Position numbers and translations under genes: made by a program. Under the pieces are notes generated by a model, which made no database searches, was not told the origin of the DNA, and worked only from the letters and a program-made list of their open reading frames with translations. DNA of 64,000 nucleotides. Origin: Synergistetes bacterium ADurb.Bin155 (GTDB taxonomy: Bacteria > Synergistota > Synergistia > Synergistales > Thermovirgaceae). Location of the stretch: assembly GCA_002070395.1 (NCBI GenBank), contig MWDE01000005.1, forward strand, positions 22,800-86,799, written 5' to 3'. Position 1 is the stretch's first letter. Each line of letters begins with the position of its first letter. Positions 8,346-61,829 of this stretch are shown piece after piece.

Positions 8346-8777
8346 GTGGTGATAAGGATGGCTTTGGAAGAACTGGAGGGCTCCAGGGGGTGCTTCGTCT
8401 GCGACCGCAGCGGCGCGAACCCGAGATCCCTCGGCGTGGTTCTCTACTGGGACGGTGACTCCGGCCGGACGGTGATACCCTTCACCCCCGACGATACCTG
8501 GTGCGGTTACGAGGGCATCGTCCACGGGGGTATACTGGCTGCGCTCTGTGACGACGCCATGGCCTGGGCCGCCAGGCAGGCCCTTGGGGAATGGACCGTA
8601 ACGGCCGGCATGAGCATCCGCTTCCTGCGGCCCGTCAAGTCCGGCGCCGGGTACACGGCCTACGGAAGCGCCCTTTCGGTGGACGGCAGGAAGGTGAAAA
8701 CCGCCGCCCGAATCGTCGGTGAGGACGGTAAAATCTACGTCGACGCCAAGGCCACCTTCGTTGGGGTCAGACCTTGA
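8346..8777 (+). CDS. PaaI-family hotdog-fold thioesterase
   Basis: HGGILAALCDDAMAWAA core motif, ~140 aa. The last 5 codons and the stop lie inside repeat core copy A. Confidence 0.8.
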   Translation: MVIRMALEELEGSRGCFVCDRSGANPRSLGVVLYWDGDSGRTVIPFTPDDTWCGYEGIVHGGILAALCDDAMAWAARQALGEWTVTAGMSIRFLRPVKSGAGYTAYGSALSVDGRKVKTAARIVGEDGKIYVDAKATFVGVRP

Positions 8778-8795
8778 ATTTGAGCAATTGTATAC
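8761..8795 (+). repeat. 35-bp repeat core, copy A (TTGGGGTCAGACCTTGAATTTGAGCAATTGTATAC)
   Basis: One mismatch to the consensus shared by copies B, C and E. Confidence 0.95.
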
Positions 8796-13940: not shown

Positions 13941-14201
13941 ATACCCCGCTCCCCGTGCAAAAGAAGAAACCCCCGCGAGTGCCGTGACACGAAGGCCTTG
14001 ACCCGTTCCAAACTAGGTGGAAACCTCACCCGCCTTTGCGGGGTAGCGCCTTGGCGCCGCCATTGCCGGCGGGTAGATCGGTCTCCCACGACCGGGTGTT
14101 GGCTCAAGGCACTTCACCATGTTCACGAACACCGCAGGGCCTGTTCTCTTTTACCCGTTGCACCGATATTATATCATAACACCCGACAGGAGGGGTTCAA
14201 C

Positions 14202-19850: not shown

Positions 19851-19885
19851 TTGGGGTCAGACCTTGAATTTGAGCATTTGTATAC
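19851..19885 (+). repeat. 35-bp repeat core, copy B (consensus)
   Basis: Identical to copies C and E. It begins 4 nt after the YitT stop. Confidence 0.95.
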
Positions 19886-20330
19886 AGGAAGGGCAAAATA
19901 CGTGAATCGTAAATCGTGAATCGAAGGGGCAAAACCAACAATCAGGAATTGGAAGAGCGAAAAACCGGAAAACAAGGCGACAGGAAACAGTCGTCAGGAG
20001 GCAGAAAGAACTCAAGGCCATAAAAAAGCAGACATAAGGCGACAGCCTGCGGAAAACTCAAGGGCATGGTACCGGGAACACTTTGGTTCTGCCGATCCAT
20101 GCCCTTCGTTTTTCGTATTGCCTGCGCCTTTCTTTTACGTCTAACGTCTAACTTCTCACGCTCTTTTACTTTTCGCCTTTGTCCTTGCCCTTCCTGCCGC
20201 CCGTTGCCTGACGCCTGTCTCCTTGTTTCTTGGTTTTTCGTCTCCCGTCTCACGTCTTACGCTCTTAAAATTTGGCCTTGCCCCTTCGATTCACGATTAA
20301 CGGCCCTTACAACTCGCGGCACTTGCGATT
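19886..20330. repeat. ~450-bp imperfect palindrome built from repeat modules
   Basis: Centre stem is AAGGGCATGG (20060-20069) / CCATGCCCTT (20097-20106). An outer 18-nt perfect inverted match is CGTGAATCGAAGGGGCAA (19915-19932) / TTGCCCCTTCGATTCACG (20278-20295). Further matched blocks lie between them. Confidence 0.85.
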
Positions 20331-20349
20331 CACGCTTTTCTAAAGGATC

Positions 20350-29437: not shown

Positions 29438-29551
29438 CTTGATCCTGGCCTTGATCCTGGTCTTGATCCTGGCCTTGATCCTGGCCTTGATCCTGGCCTT
29501 GATCCTGGCCTTGATCCTGGTCTTGATCCTGGTCCTCGTCTTGATCCTGGT
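29438..29551 (+). repeat. 12-bp tandem repeat CTTGATCCTGGY (8 contiguous units, then a 6-bp gap and a 9th unit)
   Basis: Read directly. The units abut with no spacers. Confidence 0.95.
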
Positions 29552-29765
29552 CTTTGTCTTTGTCCCTGCCCTTGCCCTGTTCCTCCCTCGCCCTCACCTT
29601 TGCCCTTGTCTTAGGCCCTCTCGATCCCATGACCCCTAACGACAGCATTGGTTCAACCTTCCACCCACATTTTCCCTCCCGATCCCCTCCCGCTCCTTCA
29701 CCGCCATCTCATCTCCCCATCCCGCGCCCCCGCTTTTTGCCCCTAAGCCTTGGCCCTTCAGGTTT

Positions 29766-29821
29766 ACGATTCACGATTCACGATTCACGATTCACGATTC
29801 ACGATTCACGATTTACGATTT
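29766..29821 (-). repeat. heptamer tandem array (6x ACGATTC + 2x ACGATTT on the plus strand, i.e. CGTGAAT/CGTAAAT on the minus strand)
   Basis: Read directly. It lies adjacent to core copy C. Confidence 0.95.
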
Positions 29822-29849
29822 ACGGAACTTACCCTTCCTACCTCATAAT

Positions 29850-29884
29850 GTATACAAATGCTCAAATTCAAGGTCTGACCCCAA
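29850..29884 (-). repeat. 35-bp repeat core, copy C (consensus, inverted)
   Basis: The reverse complement is identical to copy B. Confidence 0.95.
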
Positions 29885-29886
29885 TC

Positions 29887-29936
29887 AGGTCTGACCCCAA
29901 TCTCCCACAAATTCAAGGTCTGACCCCAATCTCCCA
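29887..29936 (-). repeat. two extra partial copies of the core outer end
   Basis: AGGTCTGACCCCAATCTCCCA occurs at 29887-29907 and at 29916-29936. The second is preceded by CAAATTCA from the core. Confidence 0.9.
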
Positions 29937-31075: not shown

Positions 31076-32080
31076 ATGACCCTGCTTTTCGAACCCCTGG
31101 AGATCCGGGGGCACCGCCTGCGGAACAGGATCGTGGCGCCCCCCATGGCGTCGCTCACGTCCACCAAGACGGGGCTGCCCACGGTGGACACCCTCGACAA
31201 CTACCGTCCCCTGACGGAGAGCGGTGTGGGCCTGGCCATCCTGGAACACCACGCCGTCCATGCCGAGGGCAGGACCCGCCTCCGCCAGCTCCTGCTCGAC
31301 CGGGACGAAGTGCTCTCCTACCAGGGCGACCTGGCGGGGCTCTTCTCCGGGGCCGGGCTCCCGGCGCTGGTCCAGGTCAACCACGCAGGCTCCTACGTGG
31401 AGGACGACGACCTCCTTGACGACGGTTGGCTCCCCAAGGCCCCCTCGCCGATAAGGCACCCCCGTTCCACCGCCCTCATCATGCCCGTCAAGCTGACCCT
31501 CGAGGAGATCGCCCTGATACCGGTGGCCTTCCTCGAGGCCGCCTCAAGGGCCGTCAGGGCGGGCTACTGCGGCGTGGAAATCCACGCCGCCCACGGCTAC
31601 CTCCTGGGGCAGTTCCTCAGCCCCATGACCAACCGGCGCTCCGACAACTACGGCGGGAGCATCAAGAACAGGGCCAGGCTCCTCTTCGAAGTCCACGAGG
31701 CGGTGCGCGAAGCCGTCGGCGACGAGGCCGTCGTCGCGGTGAGGCTGGGCATGGCCGACACCCTCCCGGGGGCCGAACCCGTCGGCCAGACCGTCGACGA
31801 CGCCCGGTGGGTGGCTGCGGAGTTCTCCTCCGTCGGCCTGGACCTGCTGGACTTCTCGGGCAACATGTGCGGCTACGACGGCCACGGCGAGGCCTGGTTC
31901 GCCCCCTACTGCCGCACCGTCAAGGACTCCGCCGGCGACGTCCCCACCATCTGCACCGGGGGTATCCGCTCCGCCGAGACGGCCCTGCGGCTCTTGGAGA
32001 GGGGCGACTGCGACCTCGTCGGCGTAGGGAGGGCGCTCAAAAGAGACCCGGGCCTTATCCATAAATGGAAGGACCTTTAA
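31076..32080 (+). CDS. NADH:flavin oxidoreductase (Old Yellow Enzyme family)
   Basis: LRNRIVAPPM...GVEIHAAHGYLLGQFLSP..N.R.D.YGGS..NR is the OYE signature. Confidence 0.85.
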   Translation: MTLLFEPLEIRGHRLRNRIVAPPMASLTSTKTGLPTVDTLDNYRPLTESGVGLAILEHHAVHAEGRTRLRQLLLDRDEVLSYQGDLAGLFSGAGLPALVQVNHAGSYVEDDDLLDDGWLPKAPSPIRHPRSTALIMPVKLTLEEIALIPVAFLEAASRAVRAGYCGVEIHAAHGYLLGQFLSPMTNRRSDNYGGSIKNRARLLFEVHEAVREAVGDEAVVAVRLGMADTLPGAEPVGQTVDDARWVAAEFSSVGLDLLDFSGNMCGYDGHGEAWFAPYCRTVKDSAGDVPTICTGGIRSAETALRLLERGDCDLVGVGRALKRDPGLIHKWKDL

Positions 32081-32985
32081 TGAGAGTCCTGGGGGCGGAC
32101 CTGGGGGGGCACTTCATAAAGGCCGCCCTCGTCGAGGGCGGGGCGGTGGCGGCCCGGGAGACGGTCCCAACCCCCGAAAGCCGCTCCCCCGCTGACGTCA
32201 TCGCCGCCGTCGCGGCCCTGGCATCGAGGCTGGACCCGGAACGTTCGGTCAAAGCCCTGGGCGTCGGCTTCCCTGGTATGCTGGACAGCCGGCGGGAAAA
32301 GGTCCTCCAGGCTCCCAACTTTCCCCTCATGGTGGGCTACCCCTTCCGGTCAGCCCTCGCCCAGGCATGCGGCCGCGAAGTGGCCCTCGAGAACGACGCC
32401 CACTGCGCCGCCCTGGGGGAGTGGGCTTTCGGAGCCGCCAAGGACCTGACGGACTTCGTCCTTCTCACCCTTGGGACGGGCATCGGCGGGGCGATCGTAT
32501 CGGGGGGCCGCCTGGTCACGGGGGCCTACGGCAAGGCCGGCGAACTGGGGCACCTGGCCGTGGCCGGCGACGCCCCCTGCGGCTGCGGAGCTTTGGGGCA
32601 CGCCGAGGCCCTCTTCGGCGCCGACGCCCTGGGCCGGGCCTTCTCCGAAGCCGGCATAGAAGGCGACCTCCCGGAGCTCTGGCTCCGACGCGGCGAACCC
32701 CGCCTGGCACCGCTGTGGGAAAAGGCCCTGGACGCCCTGGCGAGGCTCATCGCCTCCGTGTCCCACGCCCTCGACCCCCAGGCCGTCATCCTCGGCGGCG
32801 GCCTCTCCCGCGGCCTCGGCCTCGTTGAGACCCTCCGGCCGCTGGTCCTGCGCTACACCGCCCCGCCCTTCAGGGAGACCTTCGACCTCCGCCTCGCCGC
32901 CCTCGGCGACGACGCCGCCCTCCTCGGCTCCGCCCTCGGCTTCGCCTTGGGGTCAGACCTTGAATTTGATCAATTGTGTACATAA
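32080..32985 (+). CDS. ROK-family sugar kinase (glucokinase-like)
   Basis: Carries GADLGGHFIKA, LTLGTGIGGAIV, and the zinc motif GHL...C.CG..GH.E. The start overlaps the OYE stop (TAATG). The last 12 codons and the stop lie inside repeat core copy D. Confidence 0.85.
   Translation: MRVLGADLGGHFIKAALVEGGAVAARETVPTPESRSPADVIAAVAALASRLDPERSVKALGVGFPGMLDSRREKVLQAPNFPLMVGYPFRSALAQACGREVALENDAHCAALGEWAFGAAKDLTDFVLLTLGTGIGGAIVSGGRLVTGAYGKAGELGHLAVAGDAPCGCGALGHAEALFGADALGRAFSEAGIEGDLPELWLRRGEPRLAPLWEKALDALARLIASVSHALDPQAVILGGGLSRGLGLVETLRPLVLRYTAPPFRETFDLRLAALGDDAALLGSALGFALGSDLEFDQLCT
32947..32981 (+). repeat. 35-bp repeat core, copy D (3 mismatches)
   Basis: TTGGGGTCAGACCTTGAATTTGATCAATTGTGTAC. 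Confidence 0.95.
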
Positions 32986-33217
32986 GGGCGTGAGACGGGA
33001 GACGTTAGACGGTAGACGTAGGGTCAAAAGCTTGAAGCCAAAGGAAAACTCGTAAATCGGGGATCGAAAAAAAGTGGCAGTGGACGACAGCCGCTCCCCG
33101 CTTTTTGCTTTTGGTCTTCCGTCTTACTTCTCACGCCCTTCAGGCCCTCCCTGCCTCCTATTGCCTCGTTTTTTGTTTTTCCGTCTTCCGTCTCACGTCT
33201 ACCGTCTCACGCCCTTA
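32983..33217. repeat. pair of inverted heptamer arrays (CGTGAGA/CGGGAGA/CGTTAGA/CGGTAGA flavour)
   Basis: The left arm is TAAGGGCGTGAGACGGGAGACGTTAGACGGTAGACG (32983-33018). The right arm is CGTCTTCCGTCTCACGTCTACCGTCTCACGCCCTTA (about 33182-33217). Confidence 0.85.
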
Positions 33218-33225
33218 GTGTTTCC

Positions 33226-34077
33226 CTATCCCTCAAACCTGAACCTGTCGGCAAGGTCCGCCATTCTTTCTTCCGTGAAGGCGGCCCTCACCAGTTCGAC
33301 GTCTTCATCCTCGAGAAAGGGCTCGACATCATCGAAAGCTTTGCGGAAATTTACTCTTCTGCAGACTTCAACATAATGTTCCTTAAAAAGATCCTGTGTA
33401 AGAGAAACCCTTTCCTCCAACTTGCCGGACTGCTTCATCTTCCTTTCCAGACACTCGATTCTCAAAGGGATCTCCTGTCCCAGGTACCAGAGCATGTCAA
33501 ACCAGTCACGCCCCTTCACCCGGAATCTCCAGCTCCTGAAAAGGACTGCATGCATCTTCCCCGCAAAAAGATCCGGCTTTTGAAAGGTCGAGACCAAAAA
33601 GGGGGCGGGCGAAAGGACCTGTTCTGTCACCGGTTCCGGGCGGCAGGGATCGTCGAGGTCTATCTCCAGCCTCACCATGACCTGCTTCCGTGCGTGGACA
33701 GCATCGATAAGGTGCCGCCCCTGGGGGTAATAGGCCCTCCTGTTGGACAGGCTCTCTCTCAGCATCACTCTTACAAGCATCTTCGGGGTGCTCTGCCCCG
33801 ATCTAAGTTCAACATCGGAGACCGAAAACCCGTAAGCCTCGGCGTATTTCCTCACCGAAGAGAGAAAGGGCTCCCAAGAGAACGATTCACAATCCTCCAG
33901 GCAGGCAAAGTCAAGATCCTCGGAACTGCGCCTCAAACCGTAAAGGAGCCTCAGGGCCGTACCCCCGTAAAAGATGTTGCTCACGAAGAAACGCTCCCTG
34001 CTGAGAGCCAGAAGGATCACCCTCTGGAGGTCTTCCCTCAGAACGTTCTCAAGCTGCCCCAGCGTATCCAAAAGCAT
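33226..34077 (-). CDS. abiEii: AbiEii/AbiGii-family nucleotidyltransferase toxin (type IV TA / abortive infection)
   Basis: The N-terminus ...FYGGTALRLLYGL.R.SEDLDF is the characteristic DUF1814/AbiEii motif. It lies directly downstream of the AbiEi-like gene with no gap. Confidence 0.85.
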   Translation of the reverse strand: MLLDTLGQLENVLREDLQRVILLALSRERFFVSNIFYGGTALRLLYGLRRSSEDLDFACLEDCESFSWEPFLSSVRKYAEAYGFSVSDVELRSGQSTPKMLVRVMLRESLSNRRAYYPQGRHLIDAVHARKQVMVRLEIDLDDPCRPEPVTEQVLSPAPFLVSTFQKPDLFAGKMHAVLFRSWRFRVKGRDWFDMLWYLGQEIPLRIECLERKMKQSGKLEERVSLTQDLFKEHYVEVCRRVNFRKAFDDVEPFLEDEDVELVRAAFTEERMADLADRFRFEG

Positions 34078-34746
34078 CTACCTCCCTTTCAAGACCCTGG
34101 CTAGGGCCTCTACCTTCCTCGAACGGTACCCCTCGGCGATCTCCTCGATCAGGACAGGGTCCAGTTCCGAAAGGGCGGCCTCTTCTATCCTTAAATTGTC
34201 CAGCAGGTATTCCCGCGTCTCGCCGATGGCTGGCGAAAGGCCCTTTTCAAAAAAGACCTTGTCGGCCAGGGCTTTTTCGGGAAACCCCATGGCAAAAAAG
34301 GTCACGCCGTCACCGAAGGAGGCCTCGTAAGACCCCACTCCCCTGGGGTAAGCTCGGGCCGGGATAAACCGGTACGTGAAGATCCCCTCGGGAGTGTGAA
34401 ACCTTTTTGCTCTTGATGACGGAGAATTCCTCATGGCGACAGAGGTCACCTGCCTTGGAGCCTCCGGGATAAGGTTGTGATAGGCCAGCGCCCACTCCAG
34501 GGAGACATAGGACGGCCAGTAAACGCGGTTGGCTAGGACCTCCAGGGGGAAAGCGCCCCGGCGGAACCCGGGCGCTACCGCGTAAAGGCCCCGCTTGATC
34601 CTGACAATGTACCCTCCCCGGACAAGGTCCCGCAGTTTGCTGTTGGGGTCCCCGAATCCTCGAAGGACCTGGACCGCTTCCGATGTATCGAAGATCACGG
34701 GGAACTGGAGCATGAGCAGGGCGTTGCTTCTCTTCATAGCCGACAC
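34078..34746 (-). CDS. abiEi: AbiEi-family antitoxin / transcriptional regulator
   Basis: The N-terminal wHTH pattern (F...EA......G....KL..LV..G.I.RI.RGLYA) is typical of AbiEi_4. It is paired with abiEii. Confidence 0.8.
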   Translation of the reverse strand: MSAMKRSNALLMLQFPVIFDTSEAVQVLRGFGDPNSKLRDLVRGGYIVRIKRGLYAVAPGFRRGAFPLEVLANRVYWPSYVSLEWALAYHNLIPEAPRQVTSVAMRNSPSSRAKRFHTPEGIFTYRFIPARAYPRGVGSYEASFGDGVTFFAMGFPEKALADKVFFEKGLSPAIGETREYLLDNLRIEEAALSELDPVLIEEIAEGYRSRKVEALARVLKGR

Positions 34747-34791
34747 CTCAAGACTATATTACGTTATAACAATTGGCTAATATCGCCATTT

Positions 34792-34819
34792 ATTATAACT
34801 CTTTATATGTTATATTCAA
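34792..34819 (-). promoter_or_regulatory. sigma70-like promoter of abiEi-abiEii
   Basis: On the minus strand: TTGAAT, 16-nt spacer, TATAAT. GTTATAA is repeated twice downstream and is a possible AbiEi autoregulation site. Confidence 0.5.
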
Positions 34820-34870
34820 CCCGTCCTCCGATTCTCCTCCTATACTCCTCGCCTTATTCTTTTGATCTTT

Positions 34871-34968
34871 CGTCTAACGTCTTTCGTCTCCCGTCTTACG
34901 CCCCTTAGGTTTTCCTGCCGCCTGTCGCCTGGTTTTCCGATTCACGATTCACGTATTTTGTCCTTTTC
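34871..34968 (-). repeat. heptamer arrays internal to core copy E
   Basis: CGTCTAA CGTCTTT CGTCTCC CGTCTTA..., then CCGATTCACGATTCACG and the linker GTATTTTGTCCTTTTC. Confidence 0.85.
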
Positions 34969-35003
34969 GTATACAAATGCTCAAATTCAAGGTCTGACCC
35001 CAA
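34969..35003 (-). repeat. 35-bp repeat core, copy E (consensus, inverted)
   Basis: The reverse complement is identical to copy B. Together with copy D it forms an inverted pair around the AbiE genes. Confidence 0.95.
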
Positions 35004-35022: not shown

Positions 35023-35052
35023 TTGCAAATCCTCTGAGGATGACAATATAAT
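35023..35052 (+). promoter_or_regulatory. sigma70-like promoter of the polysaccharide export arm
   Basis: TTGCAA, 18-nt spacer, TATAAT. It lies ~70 nt upstream of GTG 35121. Confidence 0.55.
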
Positions 35053-35120: not shown

Positions 35121-37340
35121 GTGAAAAAAGTCCTTTTCCTTTTCACTTGTCTTTCCCTACTCTGGTGCGGCCCGGCCTTCGCCCAGCTGGCCGAAGGGGG
35201 TTCCGGCGCCGAGATCGCCATCCCCGACATTCCCGGCACCAGCGAGGCGGGCACCATCCAGGCCCCCGCCATACCGGACCTCAACGGCCCCGGTATACCC
35301 GACATCTTCCCCGCCCAGCCCGATACGCCCCACCTCCCCACCCAGGCTCCGGGCGCTTCCGAGGCACCTGCCGGCTGGGCCGATGCCGACCCCTTGGCCG
35401 AGTTCGAGCGCTTCATCACGGGTTCCCTCCCCGAGGACCGGCTCACCCAGATCAGCCGCTACGGCTCCGAGTTCTTCCGCACCGCCCCCTCCACCTTCGC
35501 CCCCGACGAGGCCGCCCCGGTCCGCCCCGACTACGTCATCGGCCCCGGCGACCAGCTCCGCATCGACGTCTGGGGCATGGTTGAAGGCTCCTGGACGGTC
35601 ACCGTCAGCCGCGACGGCACTATCACCATCCCCCGGGTCGGAGTCATCGGCGTGGCGGGCCTCGACTTCGAACAGCTGCAGGACGTCCTGGACGAGCAGT
35701 TCTCTCGCTTCTACTCCAACTACGAGATGAGCGTCACCCTGGGCGCCCTCAAGAACATAAAGGTCTACGTCGTGGGCAACGCCCGCAGGCCCGGCGGCTA
35801 CACCATCTCCTCCCTCTCCACCCTGGTCAACGCCCTGCTCGTCTCGGGCGGCCCCAACGAGAGCGGCTCCATGAGGAGCGTCCAGGTCAAGCGGGGCGGC
35901 AAGGTCGTCACCGACTTCGACCTCTACGACCTCCTCATGAAGGGCGACAAGACCAAGGACATCCGCCTCATGCCCGAGGACGTCATCTTCATCCCCAACG
36001 TGGGTCCCCAGGTGGCCGTCACGGGCAACGTCCGGCGCCCCGCCATATATGAAATGAAGAAACCCCTGAGCGTCGACGGCCTCATCGAAATGGCCGGGGG
36101 CATGACCTCCACCGGCTTCGAGGGGCGCATCCAGCTGATGCGCGTCGTGGACCGCCAGTACCGCACCATGCTCGAGGGCGACCTCAAGGCCCTCTCCCGC
36201 ACCTCCCTCAAGGGCACCACCCTGCAGGACGGCGACTACCTCCGCCTCTTCTCGGTGGTGGAGCGGCAGAGCGTCGTCCGCGTCTCGGGACCCGTGGCCA
36301 AACCGGGCGAGTTCGCCATCAATGGGGGCGTCAACAAGGTCAGCGACGTCATCCACTGGGCCGGCGGCCTGCTCTACTACGCCGCCGACGAAGCCGAGAT
36401 CACCCGCGTCGAGGTCACCGACAGCGGGCCCAAAACCACCAGGATCAAGGTCAGCCTCGGCGCGGCCCTCAAGGGCGACCCCGCCCACAACATCACCCTC
36501 CAGATGAACGACTACATCTTCGTCCGGGCCGTCCCCGACTGGCAGCTATACAAGCAGGTCGCCGTCTACGGCGAGGTGACCTACCCCGGCGTCTACACCA
36601 TCGGGCCCGGCGAACGCCTCTCCTCCCTCATCGAGCGCGCCGGCGGCTTCTCCCTCAACGCCTACACCCGCGGGGCCATCTTCACCCGCGAGAGCGTCAA
36701 GAAGGCCCAGCAGCAACAGATCGACGAGATGGTCCAGCGCTTCGAGAAGGACCTGCTGGCCGTGGGCCTCAACGAACTCTCCTCGGCCCTCACCCCTGAC
36801 GAGACCAGGATGCTCCAGATGGAGGCCCAGCAGAAGACCCGCCTCCTCGAGGCCCTGAGGAACACCAAGGCCACGGGCCGGGTCACCACCATGATCGCCG
36901 CCCCGTCCGTGCTGAAGGGCTCGGCCTACGACATCGAACTGGAGCACGGCGACAAGCTCTACGTGCCCCGCAACCCGTCCACGGTGCAGGTCATCGGGGC
37001 GGTGCTCAACCCGTCGTCCTTCGTCTACGACAAGAACCTCTCCTACAAGCAGTACATCCTCATGGCCGGCGGCTACTCCCGCGAGGCCAGCCCCGAGAGG
37101 GTCTACGTCCTCAAGGCTGACGGCACGGCCATGCGCACCAAGGAGTCGGCCAGGGCCACCACGCCCTGGGTCAAGGAGTTCAACCAGGACATCGAGTGGA
37201 ACCTCATCGAACCGGGCGACGCCATCGTGGTCCCCCAGAAAATCGAAAGCTACCGGGGTCTCCGCCAGACCCGGGACTACGTGGACATAATCTACAAGAT
37301 GGCCGTGACGGCCCTGAGCATCCACAACATAACCAACTAG
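35121..37340 (+). CDS. polysaccharide export protein (Wza-like: Poly_export plus multiple SLBB domains), 739 aa
   Basis: Signal peptide, then YVIGPGDQLRIDVWG....W.V.VSRDGTITIPRVGVIGVAGL (Poly_export motif) and repeated SLBB-like segments. Confidence 0.85.
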   Translation: MKKVLFLFTCLSLLWCGPAFAQLAEGGSGAEIAIPDIPGTSEAGTIQAPAIPDLNGPGIPDIFPAQPDTPHLPTQAPGASEAPAGWADADPLAEFERFITGSLPEDRLTQISRYGSEFFRTAPSTFAPDEAAPVRPDYVIGPGDQLRIDVWGMVEGSWTVTVSRDGTITIPRVGVIGVAGLDFEQLQDVLDEQFSRFYSNYEMSVTLGALKNIKVYVVGNARRPGGYTISSLSTLVNALLVSGGPNESGSMRSVQVKRGGKVVTDFDLYDLLMKGDKTKDIRLMPEDVIFIPNVGPQVAVTGNVRRPAIYEMKKPLSVDGLIEMAGGMTSTGFEGRIQLMRVVDRQYRTMLEGDLKALSRTSLKGTTLQDGDYLRLFSVVERQSVVRVSGPVAKPGEFAINGGVNKVSDVIHWAGGLLYYAADEAEITRVEVTDSGPKTTRIKVSLGAALKGDPAHNITLQMNDYIFVRAVPDWQLYKQVAVYGEVTYPGVYTIGPGERLSSLIERAGGFSLNAYTRGAIFTRESVKKAQQQQIDEMVQRFEKDLLAVGLNELSSALTPDETRMLQMEAQQKTRLLEALRNTKATGRVTTMIAAPSVLKGSAYDIELEHGDKLYVPRNPSTVQVIGAVLNPSSFVYDKNLSYKQYILMAGGYSREASPERVYVLKADGTAMRTKESARATTPWVKEFNQDIEWNLIEPGDAIVVPQKIESYRGLRQTRDYVDIIYKMAVTALSIHNITN

Positions 37341-39944: not shown

Positions 39945-41270
39945 GTGACGGCAGTCATGAGGGAGACCCTGGACCGCATGCGTATGGCGAAATACCTGCA
40001 GCTGTTAGTCCATACCACTGTCTTCTGGGGGACCGTGTACATAATCCAACTGGTCAAGTCCAATTGCGGCATCTACTTTTTCAGCCAGTATCTCATCCTG
40101 TACTGCGCCGTCACTCTGGGTGTCTACGCCTTCCGCGGCTTCGACATGGTGCGCCGCCACCACCTCTACCACGCCGTCATCTCCATCTTCGTGGGGATCC
40201 TGGCCGGATGCCTCATAACAATTCCCGTCTTCATTCTTTTCTATGGCCAGAAAATCTCCAAACTGGAAATGACCCTGATCTTCGGGACGACCTTCTTTGG
40301 GCTGAGTATCTATCGTGCCGCGGCTTCTTACTTCGTCCTGGGCAAGAGGGAAGGCAAGAAGTTATTCGTCATCGGCGACCGGGAAAGGTGGGAACCTCTG
40401 ATCAGGGAGGTAGCCAGTCACCTGGGAGACAATCTGGACGTCAAGGCCTACATCAACCCTACCATTTTGCATTCCCTGGAACATACTCCGGCCCCTGCCT
40501 GCGCGATCCTGGTGGGCAATCCCGAAATCTATGCCGATCCGGCGGTGAAGCAATGGACCGACCGGCTTCGGGCCGAAGGCTGTTACCTGGAGTTCGCGCC
40601 CCAGCTCGCGGAAGACACCCTGGGCAGGATCCCCCTGGTGGTGGCCCATGCCTTCCGCAACTACTACAACATGCTCTTCCAGATGACCTTCCCCCAACCC
40701 GGCCAGAGGGTTCTGGACCTACTGGTGGCGGTGCCGGGCTTTATCATCGGAGCTCTCCTGTCCCTGGTCATCATTCCGGCTATCATCATTGACTCGGGCT
40801 TTCCGGTGTTCTACACACAAAATCGCGTTGGCTTGGAGGGCAACACCTTCACCATGCACAAGTACCGCACCATGAAAAACCGCGAAAACGCGCAGGCCGC
40901 TTTCGCCGACGACGACGCCGACCTGATAACCCCCGTCGGGGCGTTCCTCCGCAAGTTCCGTCTCGACGAGATCCCCCAACTTTGGGACGTGCTGAGGGGG
41001 AAGATGAGCATCGTCGGCCCCCGGCCTGAACAGCCAGAGTTCGCCGCCGAATACGAAGAAAAAATCCCCTTCTACACGCACCGCCACAGGCTCCGTCCGG
41101 GCATCACCGGCTGGGCCCAGGTAAACTACCGCTACGCCGCGGGGATAGAGGACACGAAAAAGAAACTGGAGTACGACCTGTACTATCTGAAGAACCGCGA
41201 CACACTGCTGGACATCCAGATCATCCTGGAGACCGCTGAGACCATGCTCGGCATGCGGGGGGCGAAGTAG
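39945..41270 (+). CDS. polyprenyl-phosphate glycosyl-1-phosphate transferase (WbaP/EpsB-type bacterial sugar transferase)
   Basis: The C-terminal domain carries PVFYTQNRVG..G..F...K.RTM....................FLRKFRLDEIPQLWDVLRGKMSIVGPRP. Confidence 0.9.
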   Translation: MTAVMRETLDRMRMAKYLQLLVHTTVFWGTVYIIQLVKSNCGIYFFSQYLILYCAVTLGVYAFRGFDMVRRHHLYHAVISIFVGILAGCLITIPVFILFYGQKISKLEMTLIFGTTFFGLSIYRAAASYFVLGKREGKKLFVIGDRERWEPLIREVASHLGDNLDVKAYINPTILHSLEHTPAPACAILVGNPEIYADPAVKQWTDRLRAEGCYLEFAPQLAEDTLGRIPLVVAHAFRNYYNMLFQMTFPQPGQRVLDLLVAVPGFIIGALLSLVIIPAIIIDSGFPVFYTQNRVGLEGNTFTMHKYRTMKNRENAQAAFADDDADLITPVGAFLRKFRLDEIPQLWDVLRGKMSIVGPRPEQPEFAAEYEEKIPFYTHRHRLRPGITGWAQVNYRYAAGIEDTKKKLEYDLYYLKNRDTLLDIQIILETAETMLGMRGAK

Positions 41271-41290
41271 ATGATAGGGGCGGAAATAGC

Positions 41291-42541
41291 TTGAAGCTCT
41301 GGGTAATAAACCAGTACGCTTCCAAGCCTGACGTTGCCGGGTTGACCCGGCATTTCGAACTGGCTAAAAGGCTCATCGGGTCGGGTATAAGGACACTGAT
41401 AATCTATGGGAGCTTTGACCTTTACCTAAAAAAGCAGCCCACTAACGATGACCTGCCAAAAAAGCCCAAGGTCCAGCTATCGGAGTTCGAAGGCGTCCAA
41501 TTCCTGACGATCCCCACACCGCCTTACAGGGACAATAGGTCTTTAGGGCGGATTATAAACATGATCGCTTTTAGGCGGCGTGCCTACAGCGAAATGGCAT
41601 TGGGCCGGCATGGGAAACCGGATATGATCCTGGGTTCGACGATGACCCTTTTCGGGGCCGACGCAGCGAGAATACTGGCGAAACAGTTCGACGTCCCCTT
41701 CGTCTACGAGGTGAGGGACCTCTGGCCCCTTACACCCATAGAACTGGGCGGTTACTCCCGATGGCATCCTTTCCTGGTCTACCTGGACCATCTGGACCGG
41801 AAACTGGCTCGGTCGGCGGACCTAGTGATAATCACAGCACCGTTGATGAAGGAGTACTACAAAGAACGTTTCGGCATCCCCGATGAGAAGTTCCTATGGA
41901 TCACCAACGGGACGGACCTGGAACTTTTCAAGAACTTGCCCCAGGCCGATGAAGAAGCGGGGAAAGATTCTTTCGACATTTGCTATGCCGGGGCCCACGG
42001 CCTAGCCAACGGGCTCGACCAGGTCTTCGACAAGTTGCCCGCTGTCACCCGAAAGCACCCCGAGATCCGCCTTACCCTCGTCGGCGACGGACCGTTGAAA
42101 CCCCGCCTGAGGGAGCGAGCGCAAAAGGAAGGCCTTCCAGTCTGTTTCCTGGACGCCGTGCCTAAAAATGAACTACCCCCAATATTGAACAAGGCCGACG
42201 CGCTGTTAACCTACCTTGAACCCTGCCGCCTCTACCGCTACGGCATAAGCCTGAACAAACTGGCAGATTACCACGCGATGGGCAAGCCGATACTTTTCAT
42301 AGGAGACTGTGCAGAGAACCCGGTAATGCAATCGGGGGCAGGCCTGATCGCCCAGAGTATTGAAGATTTCCCTTCCGTTCTCAATAAAGTAATCCAAATG
42401 TCTCCAAAAGAAAGGCAGGAAATGGGATACAGGGGTCGCGCCTACGCTGAGGAGCATTACGACTGGGCGGCGTTGGCGGAGAAAATGTCAATCACTCTGG
42501 ATAAGCTAATAGCGCATAGGTCGGATCATGAAGAAGCCTAA
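41291..42541 (+). CDS. glycosyltransferase family 4 (WbuB-like)
   Basis: The N-terminus is MKLWVINQYA.P......TRHFELAK.L. It has a GT-B C-terminal domain and a TTG start. Confidence 0.85.
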   Translation: MKLWVINQYASKPDVAGLTRHFELAKRLIGSGIRTLIIYGSFDLYLKKQPTNDDLPKKPKVQLSEFEGVQFLTIPTPPYRDNRSLGRIINMIAFRRRAYSEMALGRHGKPDMILGSTMTLFGADAARILAKQFDVPFVYEVRDLWPLTPIELGGYSRWHPFLVYLDHLDRKLARSADLVIITAPLMKEYYKERFGIPDEKFLWITNGTDLELFKNLPQADEEAGKDSFDICYAGAHGLANGLDQVFDKLPAVTRKHPEIRLTLVGDGPLKPRLRERAQKEGLPVCFLDAVPKNELPPILNKADALLTYLEPCRLYRYGISLNKLADYHAMGKPILFIGDCAENPVMQSGAGLIAQSIEDFPSVLNKVIQMSPKERQEMGYRGRAYAEEHYDWAALAEKMSITLDKLIAHRSDHEEA

Positions 42542-43799
42542 TTTATTACTGCTTTCCGGCGTTTACCCCTTTAGAGGCGGGGAGCCCTTTTTAGATTTGG
42601 AAGTACAAATAATTTCGAAATATTTTAATGTATTTATTTTGCCCTGTGGGGCTAATAACCAACAACGAGTGTATAACCTCCCGGAAAATGTCAGCGTGCT
42701 TGAACTTGAATCACAATACGTAACAAACCAAAAAAGGAGCGTGATCTCTTTAATTAGGTATTGCCTTGGCTCTTTTCCGTACCTTTTTCAAGAAGGCAGG
42801 AATGACTTGATCCATTTGCTTCATCCCCTTGGTTTTATAAGAGCCTTTTGGAGGGCCGTCAGGGCACAGATCATTGCCCCAATTATTTCTGAAATATCCA
42901 GAACGAAAGGTATACAGGTAATTTACAGTTACTGGATGAGCTACGAGGCTTTGGCCGCGGTTATTTCGCGGGGGAAAGCAGGTGTGGACCTGCTCACTAT
43001 TACCCGGGCCCATGGACACGACCTTTACGATTATGCCAATACGCCCCGATTTTGTCCTTTTCAGAGGCACATAATGGAAAATATTGATGCAGTGGTGACC
43101 ATTTCTCAAAATGGAGAAAACTATTTGGCGAGCAAGTATCCCGGTTTCAAAAATAAAGTCCATACTTTTCGGCTTGGGGTCGCCCGTGGTGGGAAAGCGA
43201 GCTTTTCAACCGATGGAATTTTTAGGATAGCTTCATGCTCTTCCCTTAAACCATTGAAGAGGGTCCATCTAATCCCAGAAGCCCTACGTCAAGTAGACTT
43301 TCCTGTTTTATGGACCCATATCGGTGACGGCCCCGAGATGAGCAGGGTCCTACGTTCTGTTAACGAAACAAAAAAAGAAAATCCGCTTTTTTCAGCCAAT
43401 CTCATTGGTTATTTTAAAAATGAAAAGGTACTGGAATTTTATGAGACAAACCCGGTAGATCTGTTCATTAGTGTCAGCTCCAGTGAAGGAATACCCGTCA
43501 GTATTATGGAAGCTGTGAGCAGAGGAATCCCCAGTGTTGCGACCAATGTCGGAGGCACTTCTGAATTAATCACGCCGGAACTAGGTGGCAGTTGGCTACT
43601 ACCCCCAAAAGTATCCCCAGAAGATATCGCAAATCTACTGACCCTCATTAAAAGACAGGAATGGCATATCACGGAAAGAGACAAGGCCTTTTACCTTTGG
43701 GAAAACCGATTTGATGCAACAAAAAATTACAGTATTTTCGCCAAATGGCTAATAGGATTTCAAGAAAGCAAAACAATTGAAGGGGTGGTGCCGGAGTAA
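42528..43799 (+). CDS. glycosyltransferase family 4
   Basis: GT-B fold pattern with SSSEGIPVSIMEAVSRGIPSVATNVGG (an EX7E-like motif). AT-rich gene. Confidence 0.8.
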   Translation: MKKPNLLLLSGVYPFRGGEPFLDLEVQIISKYFNVFILPCGANNQQRVYNLPENVSVLELESQYVTNQKRSVISLIRYCLGSFPYLFQEGRNDLIHLLHPLGFIRAFWRAVRAQIIAPIISEISRTKGIQVIYSYWMSYEALAAVISRGKAGVDLLTITRAHGHDLYDYANTPRFCPFQRHIMENIDAVVTISQNGENYLASKYPGFKNKVHTFRLGVARGGKASFSTDGIFRIASCSSLKPLKRVHLIPEALRQVDFPVLWTHIGDGPEMSRVLRSVNETKKENPLFSANLIGYFKNEKVLEFYETNPVDLFISVSSSEGIPVSIMEAVSRGIPSVATNVGGTSELITPELGGSWLLPPKVSPEDIANLLTLIKRQEWHITERDKAFYLWENRFDATKNYSIFAKWLIGFQESKTIEGVVPE

Positions 43800-44986
43800 T
43801 GAAAGTGGTTTTTCTCTATGTTGGAGGATTCTCTCCTCAACATTTGGGAGTTTGGCAGAAAATTTTATCACAACACAACGCATTATGCGAAAAGGGTATT
43901 TCTTCTTGGCTTCTACTAATTAATGAGGATGGAAGTACCCTTTATGATGGTCCTTTAGAGTTAAGCAAATCTTTGCCCATTTCCTCAAATTCATTATCCT
44001 TTTCTAGGTTACGTAAATTAACCCAAAAAAAAGTTATCTACGAAAAAGCACTTCTACAAATCAGAAAGCTGAATCCTGATATTGTTTACTTAAGATATCC
44101 CGCGGGCGATCCTTTTTTTGGGTTTTTCCTTAACGAAATTGAGAAACCGGTAATAACAGAACATCAAACAAACGAGATAAAAGAATTGCTTTCAAATCGA
44201 GATTGGCCGAAATTTTTTTTCGAAAAGACAATAGGTCCGATAACAAAGTCGAGAACAAGTGGCATGGTATGCGTAACCAATGAAATAGCACGGGACCAAA
44301 GTGCGATTTTAGCAAAAGTGACAAAAAAGCTTATTCCAATAAGGGTCATTTCAAACGGTATTTCATTAAAACATTCCCCTGTAAGGAGGAAAGCACCTAT
44401 CTTTGACCGGGAAATGAATTTGATTTTTGTCGGTAATATCAGTAAATGGCATGGATTAGATTCTATTATTAAAAGTATCGCAAAATACAATGGACCTAAA
44501 AAAATATCATTCAATATTGTTGGAGCTGGAAAAAACAATCAAAGGCTTAAAGAGATTTCAAAAAGGTTAGACATTGAAGATGCTATTAGATTTTGGGAAC
44601 CAAGGTCACCCAGAGCGCTGGATTCTTTTTTTGACAATGCTCATCTTGGCGTTGGCAGTTTCGGCAGACATCGAACAGGAATGTCTGAAGGTTGTGCCTT
44701 GAAACTCAGAGAGTATTGTGTTCGCGGAATACCCTTTATTGACGGCACAATTGATCCCGACTTCCCTCCGACATTTCCTTTTGGCATGCACCTTCAACCA
44801 AACAAGGACGGGTATATTAACTTGGCCCAGGTTGTGACTTTTGTTGAAAGCCTATATTTTAATTTTGAACCATTAGCCATGGTGAAAGAGATTAGGTCTT
44901 TCGCTGAGGAAAAATTAGATTGGAACATAAAAATAGAAAAACTTATTCATTTTTTTAACGAGATTATCGGAGGTCTTGAAAAATGA
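43799..44986 (+). CDS. glycosyltransferase (GT-B, GT1/GT4-like)
   Basis: FVGNISKWHGLD....I and a C-terminal ...EGCALKLREY..RGIPFI pattern. The stop and start overlap those of its neighbours. Confidence 0.7.
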   Translation: MKVVFLYVGGFSPQHLGVWQKILSQHNALCEKGISSWLLLINEDGSTLYDGPLELSKSLPISSNSLSFSRLRKLTQKKVIYEKALLQIRKLNPDIVYLRYPAGDPFFGFFLNEIEKPVITEHQTNEIKELLSNRDWPKFFFEKTIGPITKSRTSGMVCVTNEIARDQSAILAKVTKKLIPIRVISNGISLKHSPVRRKAPIFDREMNLIFVGNISKWHGLDSIIKSIAKYNGPKKISFNIVGAGKNNQRLKEISKRLDIEDAIRFWEPRSPRALDSFFDNAHLGVGSFGRHRTGMSEGCALKLREYCVRGIPFIDGTIDPDFPPTFPFGMHLQPNKDGYINLAQVVTFVESLYFNFEPLAMVKEIRSFAEEKLDWNIKIEKLIHFFNEIIGGLEK

Positions 44987-46227
44987 CCTTAACGTTATTA
45001 ATAATATTCGGCATTATGTTCTTATTTTTTTCTATATTTCTTCGGAACGTGATGAAAAATCCCCAATGGTTTATTTCCCCCCCTGCCCTTTTCTGTGGAG
45101 GTCTAATAATCCATTTATCATTCCTGTCGTTTTTTGAAATCACGAAGGAATTAAGACTAGAGCATCAGTTCTCAATAGAGTCAGCCATTTTTTTTGTCTC
45201 TTTTTCGACCCTCTTTTTATTCAGTTCGCTGATAGGGATTATTTGTATTAAAACAAAAAATAAAAACGAAATATCAGAAAAAGGACCTTACCATTTTTCT
45301 TTTCTAACATGCGTCTTATCAGGAACGATTGGTTCCTTCAAATTAATCCAAGGTATGGATATACACAACTTATCTTTATTGATAGATTTGTATTTAAACA
45401 ATCATTATTTACTTGAAAGTTCCTTTTTCAATAGTTCCTGGACTTTACTTTGGCAAGCAAATATAGCAGCTTTGTTCTGGTTTAATTTTACTGACAGGAA
45501 GAAGACATGGCCATTAGTTCCTTTATTGTTATTCTCTATCTCCCTAAGAGCTGCCTTTCTTTACCTGACTGTCGCCATTTTTTATCTGATCGTCCCCATT
45601 GTTTATTCCTTCAAAGTGAGAAAAACCCATGTATACTTTTTTCTGTTCCTTATTATATTTTTTATGGGATCCATGTTTATAAAAGAAGGTCGCACCTCTG
45701 AACAACCAGACAGAATATCCCCTTACTCCTTCGGAAATTTTTCAAGCTTCAATTATTATTATGAAACACCTTCATACCGTAAAATTACATTTGAAGATAT
45801 CGGGTTAAACATGGGGCTTGGTCAAATATTTATTTATTCGAATAAATATTTCGGCACAAAGCTACGGTACACTCCATCTTGGCATCATGGTTTCCTTCGA
45901 CAAGTCAAGAACAGCTCTGAAAAAGGAAATGTCGTTCCTTTACAAACATATTTGATTTATCTCCCCCTGTTTCTATCTTTGGCCTTTTTTTCATTCCTAG
46001 GTTTTCTTTGCGGTTTTTTATTCAAAGTTGCTTCATCAAACCTATGGGGTTTGAGTATATATTCGTGGTTTGCTGCTTCCTTATTCATGGTTCATTCAGG
46101 TGGGGGATTCTTTGCAACCACAAAATTCTTTCCCGCGATGATGTATATATGGCCATTCCTGTTGTTTTATTCCATTAAAGACTTTTTCTTAGCAGTAGCG
46201 AAACCAGGATGTAATAATCACGGGTGA
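44983..46227 (+). CDS. polytopic membrane protein, putative O-antigen/EPS polymerase (Wzy-like)
   Basis: At least 10 predicted TM segments, very AT-rich, and in the position expected for wzy. No strong motif. Confidence 0.6.
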   Translation: MTLTLLIIFGIMFLFFSIFLRNVMKNPQWFISPPALFCGGLIIHLSFLSFFEITKELRLEHQFSIESAIFFVSFSTLFLFSSLIGIICIKTKNKNEISEKGPYHFSFLTCVLSGTIGSFKLIQGMDIHNLSLLIDLYLNNHYLLESSFFNSSWTLLWQANIAALFWFNFTDRKKTWPLVPLLLFSISLRAAFLYLTVAIFYLIVPIVYSFKVRKTHVYFFLFLIIFFMGSMFIKEGRTSEQPDRISPYSFGNFSSFNYYYETPSYRKITFEDIGLNMGLGQIFIYSNKYFGTKLRYTPSWHHGFLRQVKNSSEKGNVVPLQTYLIYLPLFLSLAFFSFLGFLCGFLFKVASSNLWGLSIYSWFAASLFMVHSGGGFFATTKFFPAMMYIWPFLLFYSIKDFFLAVAKPGCNNHG

Positions 46228-46307
46228 GAAATCTAAAAACCGCGATGGTTCATTATAGAGGACAATAAAATATCATAATCTTGTATACTGTCAATATATA
46301 TCCTTTC

Positions 46308-47742: not shown

Positions 47743-48071
47743 GACAAACTTGACCCTGAACAGTGGATATTTCGGTTCAAATTTCCCGACTTGCAGGAAA
47801 AGGTCGTGGGGATGAAACAAAATATCGCTAAACTGGGGCTAGACCCAGAACAACAGAGAAGCATACTCCAAAAATATTACAGAACAATCGAATTCATAGC
47901 GGGGGCTGGGACAAAACTGAACCAAAACAACCCTACGCCCGGATGATCTCCTCATATATCTCCCAGTCCTTTTCCGACAGAAAGGAGCTGTTGTGCCAGA
48001 GGAGGGTTACGGCCCCGCCAAACCTCCGACATTAGTCTTTCCACTTTCCCGCCCAGCTCATCTTTGACATC

Positions 48072-48109
48072 TGTTTTTGAAAACCCCGAGGAATCCCAAT
48101 TCCTCGGGG
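48072..48109 (-). terminator. intrinsic terminator closing the ImmA/DUF4411 transcription unit
   Basis: 11-bp perfect stem CCCCGAGGAAT/ATTCCTCGGGG with loop CCCA, followed on the minus strand by TTTTCAAAAA. Confidence 0.7.
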
Positions 48110-48147
48110 TAACAAATAGGTGTTCCGTTACAGATTATTAAAAAGTT

Positions 48148-48375
48148 TTATCCATCCGGAGAAGTCGTGGAAGGTATAGCCTCAACAGGAACATCAACGT
48201 CTACCGTCAGTAAGCCTGTAAAGTTTTCTTTGCCTGCATTCAGGACAAAACCTTTGTTAGTTTTCCAGCAAAATCCCAACACTAATTTCCTGGCGGCCGA
48301 CTCGGTACCAATAAAGTGTTCATAAGCCATGAGGTCCATAGCACCATCCTGATACCAGTGCCAAATAGAGTACAA
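48148..48375 (-). CDS. hypothetical small protein (75 aa), possible third gene of the module
   Basis: This ORF lies between the DUF4411 gene and the terminator. No motif recognised and no clear RBS checked. Confidence 0.3.
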   Translation of the reverse strand: MYSIWHWYQDGAMDLMAYEHFIGTESAARKLVLGFCWKTNKGFVLNAGKENFTGLLTVDVDVPVEAIPSTTSPDG

Positions 48376-48507
48376 TCACCTTACTTTGTTGCAAGAGTCC
48401 CTCGTCTACGATTTCGTGGCGCTCAACACTTAGGAAAAGCGAAGTACCACATTCAAAATAAAACCTTGAATAGGAGACTCCTTTTGAATTTACACCAGCA
48501 TCAGAAC

Positions 48508-52594: not shown

Positions 52595-52665
52595 AGGGAA
52601 TTCCTCCTGTACGCTGCTCAAACAACTTGCCAGGGAATGATTATCTAAAAACCAACATCCGGCCA

Positions 52666-61794: not shown

Positions 61795-61829
61795 TTGGGG
61801 TCAGACCTTGAATTTGAGCATTTGTGTAC
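61795..61829 (+). repeat. 35-bp repeat core, copy F (1 mismatch)
   Basis: TTGGGGTCAGACCTTGAATTTGAGCATTTGTGTAC. Confidence 0.95.

Follow-up and report, generated by a model that had tools for sequence, protein, structure and literature searches.

The window analysed here is a stretch of 64,000 nucleotides from Synergistetes bacterium ADurb.Bin155 (GenBank assembly GCA_002070395.1, contig MWDE01000005.1, positions 22,800 to 86,799 of the forward strand). Near its centre, between a ROK-family kinase gene and a wza-like gene that opens an exopolysaccharide (EPS) cluster, lies an abiEi–abiEii pair with a copy of a 35-bp repeat, the core, at either end in inverted orientation (Table 1). An earlier note on this DNA took the arrangement for a non-autonomous transposable cassette. 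Comparison with related genomes makes it likely that two separate things are juxtaposed at this locus, a long-resident abiE module and terminal inverted repeats (TIRs) that mark gene borders, and that the segment is not a mobile cassette.

The abiE genes form a bicistronic operon with the antitoxin gene first, the abiEi stop (34078) abutting the abiEii start (34077). AbiEii matches PF08843 (E 3.4e-27; PADLOC 219 bits) and AbiEi matches PF13338 at 25.8 bits, against a cutoff of 25 (PADLOC 164.5 bits). The AbiEii motifs, defined as I–II (hG[GS]..DhD, with R), III (K..R) and IV (+DxxD) (PMC3985639), are all intact (YGG37-39...R50...D54LD56, K174...R181 and R190DWFD). The minus-strand promoter TTGAAT-16-TATAAT (34819..34792) agrees with the consensus at 10 of 12 positions, and inverted repeats of 6–7 nt (TATAACA/TGTTATA and GTTATAA/TTATAAC) overlap it as a putative operator. 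As read from its sequence, this is an intact type IV toxin–antitoxin (TA)/abortive-infection operon, complete and with its own promoter as had been proposed. By analogy with characterized members of the family, AbiEi would repress its own promoter and neutralize AbiEii, a presumed GTP-binding nucleotidyltransferase that would arrest growth on release; phage infection would free the toxin and so abort the infection.

The operon shares with the AbiE system of Dy et al. 2014 (PMC3985639) and its MenAT relatives (PMC7450476) the bicistronic antitoxin–toxin order, a DUF1814 nucleotidyltransferase with motifs I–IV, an antitoxin with a winged helix-turn-helix (HTH) and an AT-rich promoter with inverted repeats. 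It differs in the spacing of motifs I and II, which is 14 residues here rather than about 15–16. The MenT relatives of AbiEii are described as blocking translation through modification of the tRNA acceptor stem (PMC7450476). Neither AbiE protein of the window matched a solved structure (phmmer against PDB). A second, unrelated pair, AbiEii (330 aa) and DUF6088-AbiEi (207 aa), is encoded in the same genome, about 2.1–3.7 kb past the right end of the window (locus L163, 4533–6135); purine-rich repeat DNA surrounds it, with no cores nearby.

At the ends of the segment, the inverted repeat consists of two 42-nt arms (32947–32988 and 34962–35003) that are 86% complementary and have 1973 nt between them, and both outer tips read TTGGGG. 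The geometry was thus correctly described, as was the composition of the enclosed DNA: the abiE module has a GC content of 0.55, against 0.73 for ROK and 0.66 for wza. Profile matches also bear out the identity of the two flanking genes. The final 13 codons and the stop codon of ROK lie inside the left core; the kinase is annotated as 301 aa in public assemblies, and its orthologues align to only 95% of its length. A promoter-like site for wza (35023–35052) lies just beyond the right core. Heptamer arrays had been reported as running from 32983 to 33217 and again inside the right core. They are present inside both cores, but are not continuous over those ranges; the left one consists of two inverted arrays that enclose 141 nt of spacer, with a GAGACGG array at 32989–33019 and inverted CGTCTNN arrays at 33102–33140 and 33179–33211. 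The left spacer folds as a long hairpin (z -6.2), and a consensus scan found no terminator-like site in either spacer.

No target-site duplication was found at the segment flanks, which read ...GGCTTCGCC (ending in TTCGCC) on the left and TGTTCT... on the right, in agreement with the earlier note. This is not diagnostic against mobility, because HUH Y1 transposases (IS200/IS605, RAYT chemistry) make no such duplication. The islet has no integrase, and there is no tRNA gene at the ROK–wza junction.

Table 1. Features of the abiE locus, other copies of the core and RNA genes in the window (window coordinates)
Feature	Position	Strand	Basis or remark
ROK-family kinase gene	32080..32985	+	PF00480, E 2e-54
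Left 35-bp core, TIRYT-type TIR, TTGGGG tip toward ROK	32947..32981	+	
Left repeat-rich spacer	32982..33225	no strand	Heptamer arrays, long hairpin
abiEii, DUF1814 nucleotidyltransferase toxin, 283 aa	33226..34077	-	Pfam, PADLOC
abiEi, antitoxin and predicted autorepressor, 219 aa	34078..34737	-	Pfam, PADLOC
abiE promoter and putative operator	34738..34828	-	Promoter scan, inverted repeats
Right repeat-rich spacer	34829..34968		CGTCTNN (34866-34897) and CGATTCA (34938-34953) heptamers
Right 35-bp core, TIRYT-type TIR, TTGGGG tip toward wza	34969..35003	-	
wza-like polysaccharide exporter gene, first gene of the EPS cluster	35121..37340	+	
Core supplying the stop codon of a thioesterase gene (8346-8777)	8761..8795	+	
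Core with repeat element of about 490 bp	19851..20340	+	Homologous to the 394-bp doublet of L012; second core missing
One full and two partial cores upstream of ychF	29850..29929	-	
Core at outer edge of the sigma70/M15/YvrJ/DUF2922/DUF1659 block	61795..61829	+	
6S RNA	13966-14143	-	Rfam, 59.6 bits
tRNA-Leu(CAA)	1950-2035	-	Routine feature

The two cores belong to a dispersed family. The 23-mer with which the core starts, TTGGGGTCAGACCTTGAATTTGA, has seven matches in the window (8761+, 19851+, 29862-, 29907-, 32947+, 34981- and 61795+) against 0.00 expected from shuffles. Two window genes, those for the ROK kinase (32947–32985) and a 4HBT thioesterase (8761–8777), take their last codons and stop from a core, and ROK orthologues in two other species likewise end within one. 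The cores upstream of ychF and the left core bracket ychF–OYE–ROK in the opposite sense to the pair around abiE, and the sigma70/M15/YvrJ/DUF2922/DUF1659 block with a core at its outer edge directly adjoins abiE in L026, L063 and L093. The tip is TT-GGGGTCAG in every copy and fits GGGGWSAS, the TIR tip consensus of TIRYT/TIRtron elements (PMC3733652). A single core is unfolded (minimum free energy -1.8 kcal/mol, z +0.58), while doublets of 59–394 nt fold very stably (z -3.6 to -14), and the core lacks a terminal GTAG. Because singles do not fold and doublets do, the core is a TIR and not a classical repetitive extragenic palindrome (REP). Known RNA families were considered and rejected for the repeat: in the window, Rfam at gathering thresholds returned only 6S RNA and a tRNA, and a permissive scan of the abiE region gave a single chance-level match.

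Identity with the inverted repeats of the Tn3 family was considered and dropped. Repeats of Tn3 elements open with GGGGTCTGAC and close with TAAG. A 38-bp GGGG...TAAG of similar form can be read in one of the cores, but TT precedes GGGG in every copy, 5-bp duplications are absent and the partner enzyme is a Y1 transposase.

The heptamer CGTCTNNCGTCTNNCGTCT has 19 matches in the window against 0.09 expected, and arrays of the CGTCTNN and CGTGAAT types lie directly inward of both cores and recur in several further intergenic stretches. Those near abiE are each short, with 2.3–4.6 copies (32989–33019, 33179–33211, 34866–34897 and 34938–34953). Arrays of period 7 also adjoin the TIR in unrelated taxa, where the heptamers differ: CGTGAAT, CGTCTNN and CGTCAGT in the lineage of the window, CCGTTNA in the species with 69% ROK identity, and CAGTCNN/TAGTCNN and AGTTAGN in AT-rich contigs. 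The sites are 32989–33019, 33179–33211, 34866–34953, 29760–29830 and 8810–8870 in the window, and L050 (about 4025), L072 (about 1845), L035/L059 and L029 (8410–8480) elsewhere. Such arrays might be candidate binding sites for the C-terminal HTH of the enzyme described below.

A metagenome scan with the first 18 nt of the core, TTGGGGTCAGACCTTGAA, gave more than 117 stretches from very different organisms; the set was gathered by exact search and the true breadth may differ. The 18-nt tip is identical across contrasting base compositions, and the TIRYT proteins that go with it are 30–48% identical (L108 3484–4769, L074 1459–2475, and L126, L140, L104 and L069 from metagenomes). GC-rich contigs of JADHED01 carry tandem units of about 132–200 bp, each starting with the 18-mer followed by TTTCAACATCG (L037, L045, L052, L066, L091, L109, L118, L127 and L147); these may be clustered TIRs or coding repeats. 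In the viral collection a single 18-mer match was found (L034), with an unrelated tail.

The enzyme that goes with the core was recognized in AT-rich contigs (L108 and L074), where outward-facing core pairs enclose a single open reading frame (ORF) of 314–315 aa with Y1_Tnp (IS200-like, HUH) and DnaA-C-like HTH domains, and with 'REP-associated tyrosine transposase' (RAYT) as its best NCBIfam match. A search with this TIRYT family gave 6,261 matches, many of them named RayT by the Joint Genome Institute (JGI). Homologues adjoin the Synergistota-type core in L019, L124 and L125, and the gene is core-flanked in L019. In the Synergistota loci L152-155 and L156-158, a core(+)/core(-) pair 872–873 bp apart brackets the TIRYT gene (in L152-155, core+ 3065–3099 and core- 3972–4006), which is single-copy and syntenic in a conserved baeRF–TIRYT–DUF2207–LemA context. 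The enzymes of L019, P0168 and P0051 match PF01797 (E 2e-11 to 4e-14) and NF047646, REP_Tyr_transpos (80.4–83.1 bits; cutoff 80). The Synergistota TIRYTs carry a C-terminal HTH_23/HTH_28, and a C-terminal Bac_DnaA_C/HTH_23/HTH_28 characterizes TnpA-Y1 subclass 2.1 (PMC6006769). The core is therefore the terminal inverted repeat of a TIRYT, or 'TIRtron', the kind of Y1 HUH transposase that resembles RAYTs and carries an HTH at its C-terminus.

Although tblastn found no TIRYT within the window, L163 is 100% identical to window positions 61615–64000 and carries one (P0168) at 10001–10858; the genome of the window therefore encodes TIRYT about 7.6 kb past the window end. This gene has an intact core 13 bp upstream; of the TIR downstream of it only the inner 22 nt are left, and the tip is lost. 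Both TIRs are intact in a 92% identical relative, L152. Repeat and enzyme change together. All cores of L156-158 and L162 read ...CAG(A/G)GCTTGATTTT... (the L156-158 variant is ...CAGAGCTTGATTTT... at every copy), and the L156-158 variant accompanies an 80%-identical TIRYT, P0051; the type shared by L152-155 and the window is ...CAGACCTTGAATTT.... The core variant thus shifts genome-wide with the enzyme, and so repeat and TIRYT co-vary over the two lineages compared. A transposase that varies together with the repeat, which the earlier note had suggested looking for, does exist.

TIRYTs, or TIRtrons, were described by Di Nocera, De Gregorio & Rocco in 2013 as RAYT-like genes with long TIRs, which are also moderately abundant elsewhere, scattered singly, in dimers and in clusters (PMC3733652). 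In the classification of Quentin et al. 2018 their counterpart is TnpA-Y1 subclass 2.1 (PMC6006769). The Synergistota family is a further case of this class, just as abiE is a known system. It shares with it a Y1 HUH gene flanked by long TIRs that are not individual palindromes, the GGGGWSAS tip and the dispersal of TIRs (PMC3733652), as well as the C-terminal domains and the single-copy, syntenic gene (PMC3733652, PMC6006769). There are also differences. The identical tip stretch is 18 nt here, despite 30–48% TIRYT identity, against a published consensus of 8 nt; period-7 arrays accompany the TIRs here and are absent from the text of PMC3733652 (term search); and the doublets here have long spacers (49–394 bp) that can hold gene cargo. 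Synergistota are mentioned in neither PMC3733652 nor PMC6006769 (term search). Compared with REP/REPIN–RAYT systems (Nunvar 2010; Bertels & Rainey 2011, PMC3116915, PMC3337134), the likeness lies in a domesticated single-copy Y1 transposase beside its own repeat, in inverted doublets that form hairpins, in intergenic location, in a repeat variant that co-varies with the enzyme and in an enzyme that passes REP_Tyr_transpos of NCBIfam. Unlike a REP, the core is not palindromic and has no GTAG tag, and the enzyme has an extra HTH.

To follow the cores and abiE separately, the neighbourhoods of ROK orthologues with 77%, 69% and 66% identity were examined. The left core overlaps the ROK 3' end, with the stop inside it, in both the 77% species (L026 and L027) and the 69% species (L028-31). 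Three other species have kept the core at this end of ROK, and across L026, L027 and L028-31 five different contents lie behind it. What follows the ROK core can be hipBA with abiE and the sigma70 block, a giant ORF of 1,817–1,959 aa, fragments of insertion sequence (IS) IS110 with abiE and hipBA, or IS110 with TumE/MarR and hipBA. The left core is thus present without abiE in L028, L030 and L031, and in the 66% species (L032) neither core nor abiE lies behind ROK.

Behind ROK, orthologues of abiE were found in at least four other lineages (L026/L063, L093, L029/L159 and L162), with 78–85% identity for AbiEii and 85–90% for AbiEi. The DNA of the module conserved with the window extends only over about 33196–34828, from the abiEii stop to just past the promoter and inside the repeats, and homology to L026, L029 and L093 stops at 34821–34828. 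In L026/L063, abiE lies between hipA and the sigma70 block, which equals window 59959–61886 at 94% identity, and no core adjoins it; in L026, hipBA occupies the position of the left spacer. In L093 the ROK end, core and left spacer are of the window type (94.8%); behind them come what is left of the hipA 3' end, then abiE and then the sigma70 block, and the right core is missing. L159, which shares a contig with L029, reads abiE–hipBA–164 aa–wza. No core precedes its wza, and similarity to the window sets in at 35015, immediately beyond the right core. L162 is collinear with the window through ROK–abiE–wza at about 84% identity and has the right core and heptamers, but its left core has decayed to TTGGGGCCCAGAGCTCAAAGG. 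The right spacer is collinear with L162 and absent from L026, L093 and L159. From this pattern of presence and absence, each core is independent of abiE: the left belongs to the ROK border and the right to the wza border. Taken separately, each core is missing from some relative that has abiE (L026/L063, L093 and L159 on the one hand, L162 on the other), an outcome that the earlier note had named as contrary to its proposal. Insertion of the EPS cluster (25 kb, 34829–59958) between abiE and the sigma70 block was considered and withdrawn, as wza lies beside the islet in L162 and L159.

The abiE genes appear to have been at this locus for a long time. Nucleotide identity of abiE to the window is close to that of the flanks in L026 (87.1 vs 85.6%), L029 (81.6 vs 76–78%) and L162 (84.1 vs 84.7%), and the low GC content of abiE (0.49–0.55) is common to all four species. 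The module is therefore an old resident and no recent arrival. Within the species of the window, one of the Synergistota (Thermovirgaceae) and common in anaerobic digesters, the order ROK–abiEii–abiEi–wza is identical in 63 contigs (23 found by exact-protein matches to AbiEii, 20 to ROK and 20 to Wza), and a metagenome-assembled genome about 96% identical, JAXGNU01, has the same layout. No empty site was seen among these 63 contigs or in five related lineages, nor was the core–abiE–core unit found at any other site in the fetched DNA. Comparison of the junction in relatives, which the earlier note had advised, therefore revealed content that is polymorphic between species and strains, but no empty site.

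Turnover could be observed between two strains of one species, L029 and L031, whose ROK, core and IS110 sequences agree at 99.4%. Here a segment of 3.85 kb with abiE (L029 9953–13800) is exchanged for one of 0.98 kb with TumE/MarR-like genes (L031 9960–10938). The breakpoints are at the end of IS110, which is intact in L031 and fragmented in L029, and about 200 bp upstream of hipB; neither is at a core. In the 69% species, the spacers that surround hipBA are filled by several copies of another dispersed, hairpin-like repeat, CTGTCATCCCGAATTCCTGAAAGGGATGAGGGATCTGG (L029 13440–13800 and L159 4800–5400). L093 1–4280 is mosaic: over the ROK end and left spacer it is 94.8% identical to the window, and over abiE and the sigma70 block 98.3% identical to L026. 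Together with the hipA 3' remnant, this indicates recombination between lineages and deletion of hipBA at the locus.

These data bear directly on the reading of the 2,057-bp segment as a non-autonomous composite transposon (a 'pseudo-TIRtron'), its TIRs recognized in trans by TIRYT and abiE moved as a unit. The 42-nt, 86% inverted repeat with tips outward, the match of this geometry to genuine core-flanked TIRYT genes, the cognate TIRYT in the same genome, the HUH Y1 chemistry that is expected to leave no target-site duplication and a cargo GC content below that of the flanks would all fit such an element. Nevertheless, the two cores differ in phylogenetic distribution and each is found alone beside abiE, the conserved boundaries of the module lie inside the repeats, and the unit has neither a copy elsewhere nor an empty site. 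The TIRtron itself is single-copy and syntenic and hence not mobile, with its downstream TIR tip lost in this genome, and at a separation of 2 kb the arms would not easily pair into the hairpin of a short doublet. Movement of abiE in this way is accordingly very improbable. Composite and miniature inverted-repeat transposable element (MITE)-flanked transposons, such as IS-bounded composites and Tn3-derived TIMEs, likewise carry passenger genes between inverted short terminal repeats with no transposase inside; here, by contrast, cargo and ends are not inherited together, a duplication, a second copy and an empty site are all lacking, and the ends are those of a Y1 (HUH) and not a DDE system.

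The orientation of the cores finds an account in a census of neighbouring Synergistota-type core pairs in all non-redundant fetched DNA, a check of the kind that the earlier note had suggested. At distances up to 500 bp, four of four inverted pairs were outward-facing (+/-) and empty, with spacers of 49, 49, 324 and 329 bp. At 0.5–5 kb, +/- pairs enclosed TIRYT (872–873 bp), abiE (1,987 bp) and a Panacea/SocA TA module (2,436 bp, L042). At this distance -/+ pairs are equally common and hold housekeeping genes (baeRF; ychF–OYE–ROK). One rule accounts for all census pairs: the TTGGGG tip abuts the neighbouring conserved gene. It follows that the contents of a gap are bracketed +/- and conserved blocks -/+.

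Apart from mobilization, which synteny contradicts, the earlier note had raised trapping of defence genes by the repeats, and this part survives as a weaker possibility. An empty TIR doublet of the 119–394-bp kind would first have filled the ROK–wza gap and then, as a favoured site of landing or recombination, have captured TA/defence modules and IS elements without moving this cargo. The best evidence comes from one pair of loci, which suggests such a process. In L012 (5433–5826) an empty 394-bp doublet fills one intergenic gap; in the orthologous gap of a related species (L042 1433–3938) both cores and the same flanking genes are kept, and 210 bp of the doublet interior are replaced by 2.33 kb with a SocA/Panacea antitoxin and a 165-aa ORF. 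The census is in keeping with this, inverted pairs of up to 500 bp all being +/- doublets and the kb-scale +/- pairs holding TIRYT, abiE and the Panacea TA, as is the turnover of the islet behind the ROK core (abiE, hipBA, IS110, TumE/MarR, giant ORF). Doublets fold into hairpins of very high stability (z -7 to -14), and REPs are known targets of IS insertion, for example of ISPpu9 (PMC8450116). However, the argument rests on two loci and has no TIR-free gap as a control, the strain-swap breakpoints are not at TIRs or obvious heptamer arrays, operon boundaries are generic hotspots for TA/defence islets, the second abiE pair of the same genome has no cores, and the mechanism is hypothetical. 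Trapping at the abiE locus is thus unlikely, if clearly less so than transposition.

Selection of the flanking repeats as transcriptional or mRNA insulators, separating the oppositely oriented abiE from ROK and wza, was also considered. The cores lie at gene 3' ends or just outside promoters, the left spacer has a strong fold (z -6.2), the ROK-end core is conserved over 69–77% ROK identity, far beyond neutral DNA, and REP/MITE elements have been reported as RNA hairpins, terminators and stabilizers (PMC3733652). Against this, neither spacer has a terminator-like site, a single core does not fold (z +0.58) and relatives do without one or the other core, while conservation of the core is explicable by concerted evolution with TIRYT and by partial coding in ROK. 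An insulating role is therefore rather improbable.

The favoured reading, a resident abiE module between border-marking TIRs, would work as follows. The abiE genes would be long-standing members of a small variable TA/defence islet between the ychF–OYE–ROK and wza/EPS blocks. The TIR family would disperse both as single copies and as doublets with outward tips, the latter taking up the space between genes, and the cores here would be TIRYT terminal repeats lodged at the borders of ROK and wza, where they frame the islet without moving it. Its interior (hipBA, IS110, TumE/MarR, abiE) would change while the frame stays, and the inverted geometry around abiE would follow from the framing rule and not from transposition of abiE. 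The identity of the repeat, its anchoring, the synteny and the turnover breakpoints on which this reading draws were observed directly; that TIRYT spread the TIRs we infer from what has been proposed for RAYTs and REPINs (PMC3116915, PMC3733652). Conserved housekeeping flanks, a GC content below that of the core genome and turnover of abiE, hipBA, TumE/MarR, IS110 and the giant ORF between strains and species all resemble variable TA/defence islets at hotspots elsewhere; this one differs in being framed by a transposase-linked repeat and in lacking an integrase and a tRNA gene at the junction.

Several points weigh against this interpretation. TIRs with outward tips about 2 kb apart are arranged exactly as in a TIRtron whose transposase has been replaced by abiE, and the absent target-site duplication is no argument against mobility for a Y1 system. 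Each of the three kb-scale +/- pairs encloses an accessory module (TIRYT, abiE or the Panacea TA), a hint that the framing may not be purely passive. In addition, vertical descent is not the whole story of the abiE locus, as the L093 mosaic demonstrates, and the EPS block has either moved beside abiE or been lost from L026 and L093.

The EPS region itself (35121–37340 and 40000–55000) looks, from its sequence, horizontally exchanged and strain-variable. Its Wza is 91% identical to that of a species with only 69% ROK identity, the middle of the cluster drops to 34–46% GC, and the same-species contigs L005 and L020 differ inside it. Elsewhere in the window, a lower-GC stretch at 2–8.2 kb encodes GntR, a TRAP transporter and aldehyde:ferredoxin oxidoreductase and has no defence genes, and a short tandem repeat of TGATCCTGGYCT-like units lies at 29500–29560, upstream of the ychF repeat region.

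The locus thus offers no new case of defence-gene mobilization; the inverted repeats around abiE follow from the gene-border habit of the repeat family, and the reading of TIR–cargo–TIR as a transposon is a tempting false positive against which caution is needed. What has been gained is the identification of the repeat family of the window as the TIR family of the little-studied TIRYT class. Synergistota provide a clear example of this class, with a cognate gene, co-variation of repeat and enzyme, and both empty and filled doublets, and add to it an 18-nt tip common to distant genomes and an association, so far unexplained, of the TIR with period-7 arrays. With these features the TIRYT system, and the possible attraction of accessory genes to doublets, become directly testable. 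There is an outside chance that TIRYT-type doublets are preferred capture sites for TA/defence genes, through a hairpin/cruciform or through nicks made by TIRYT. Small defence islets at Synergistota gene borders would in that case be organized by a domesticated Y1 transposase together with its repeats, and the same may possibly hold in many other taxa with the identical 18-nt TIR tip.

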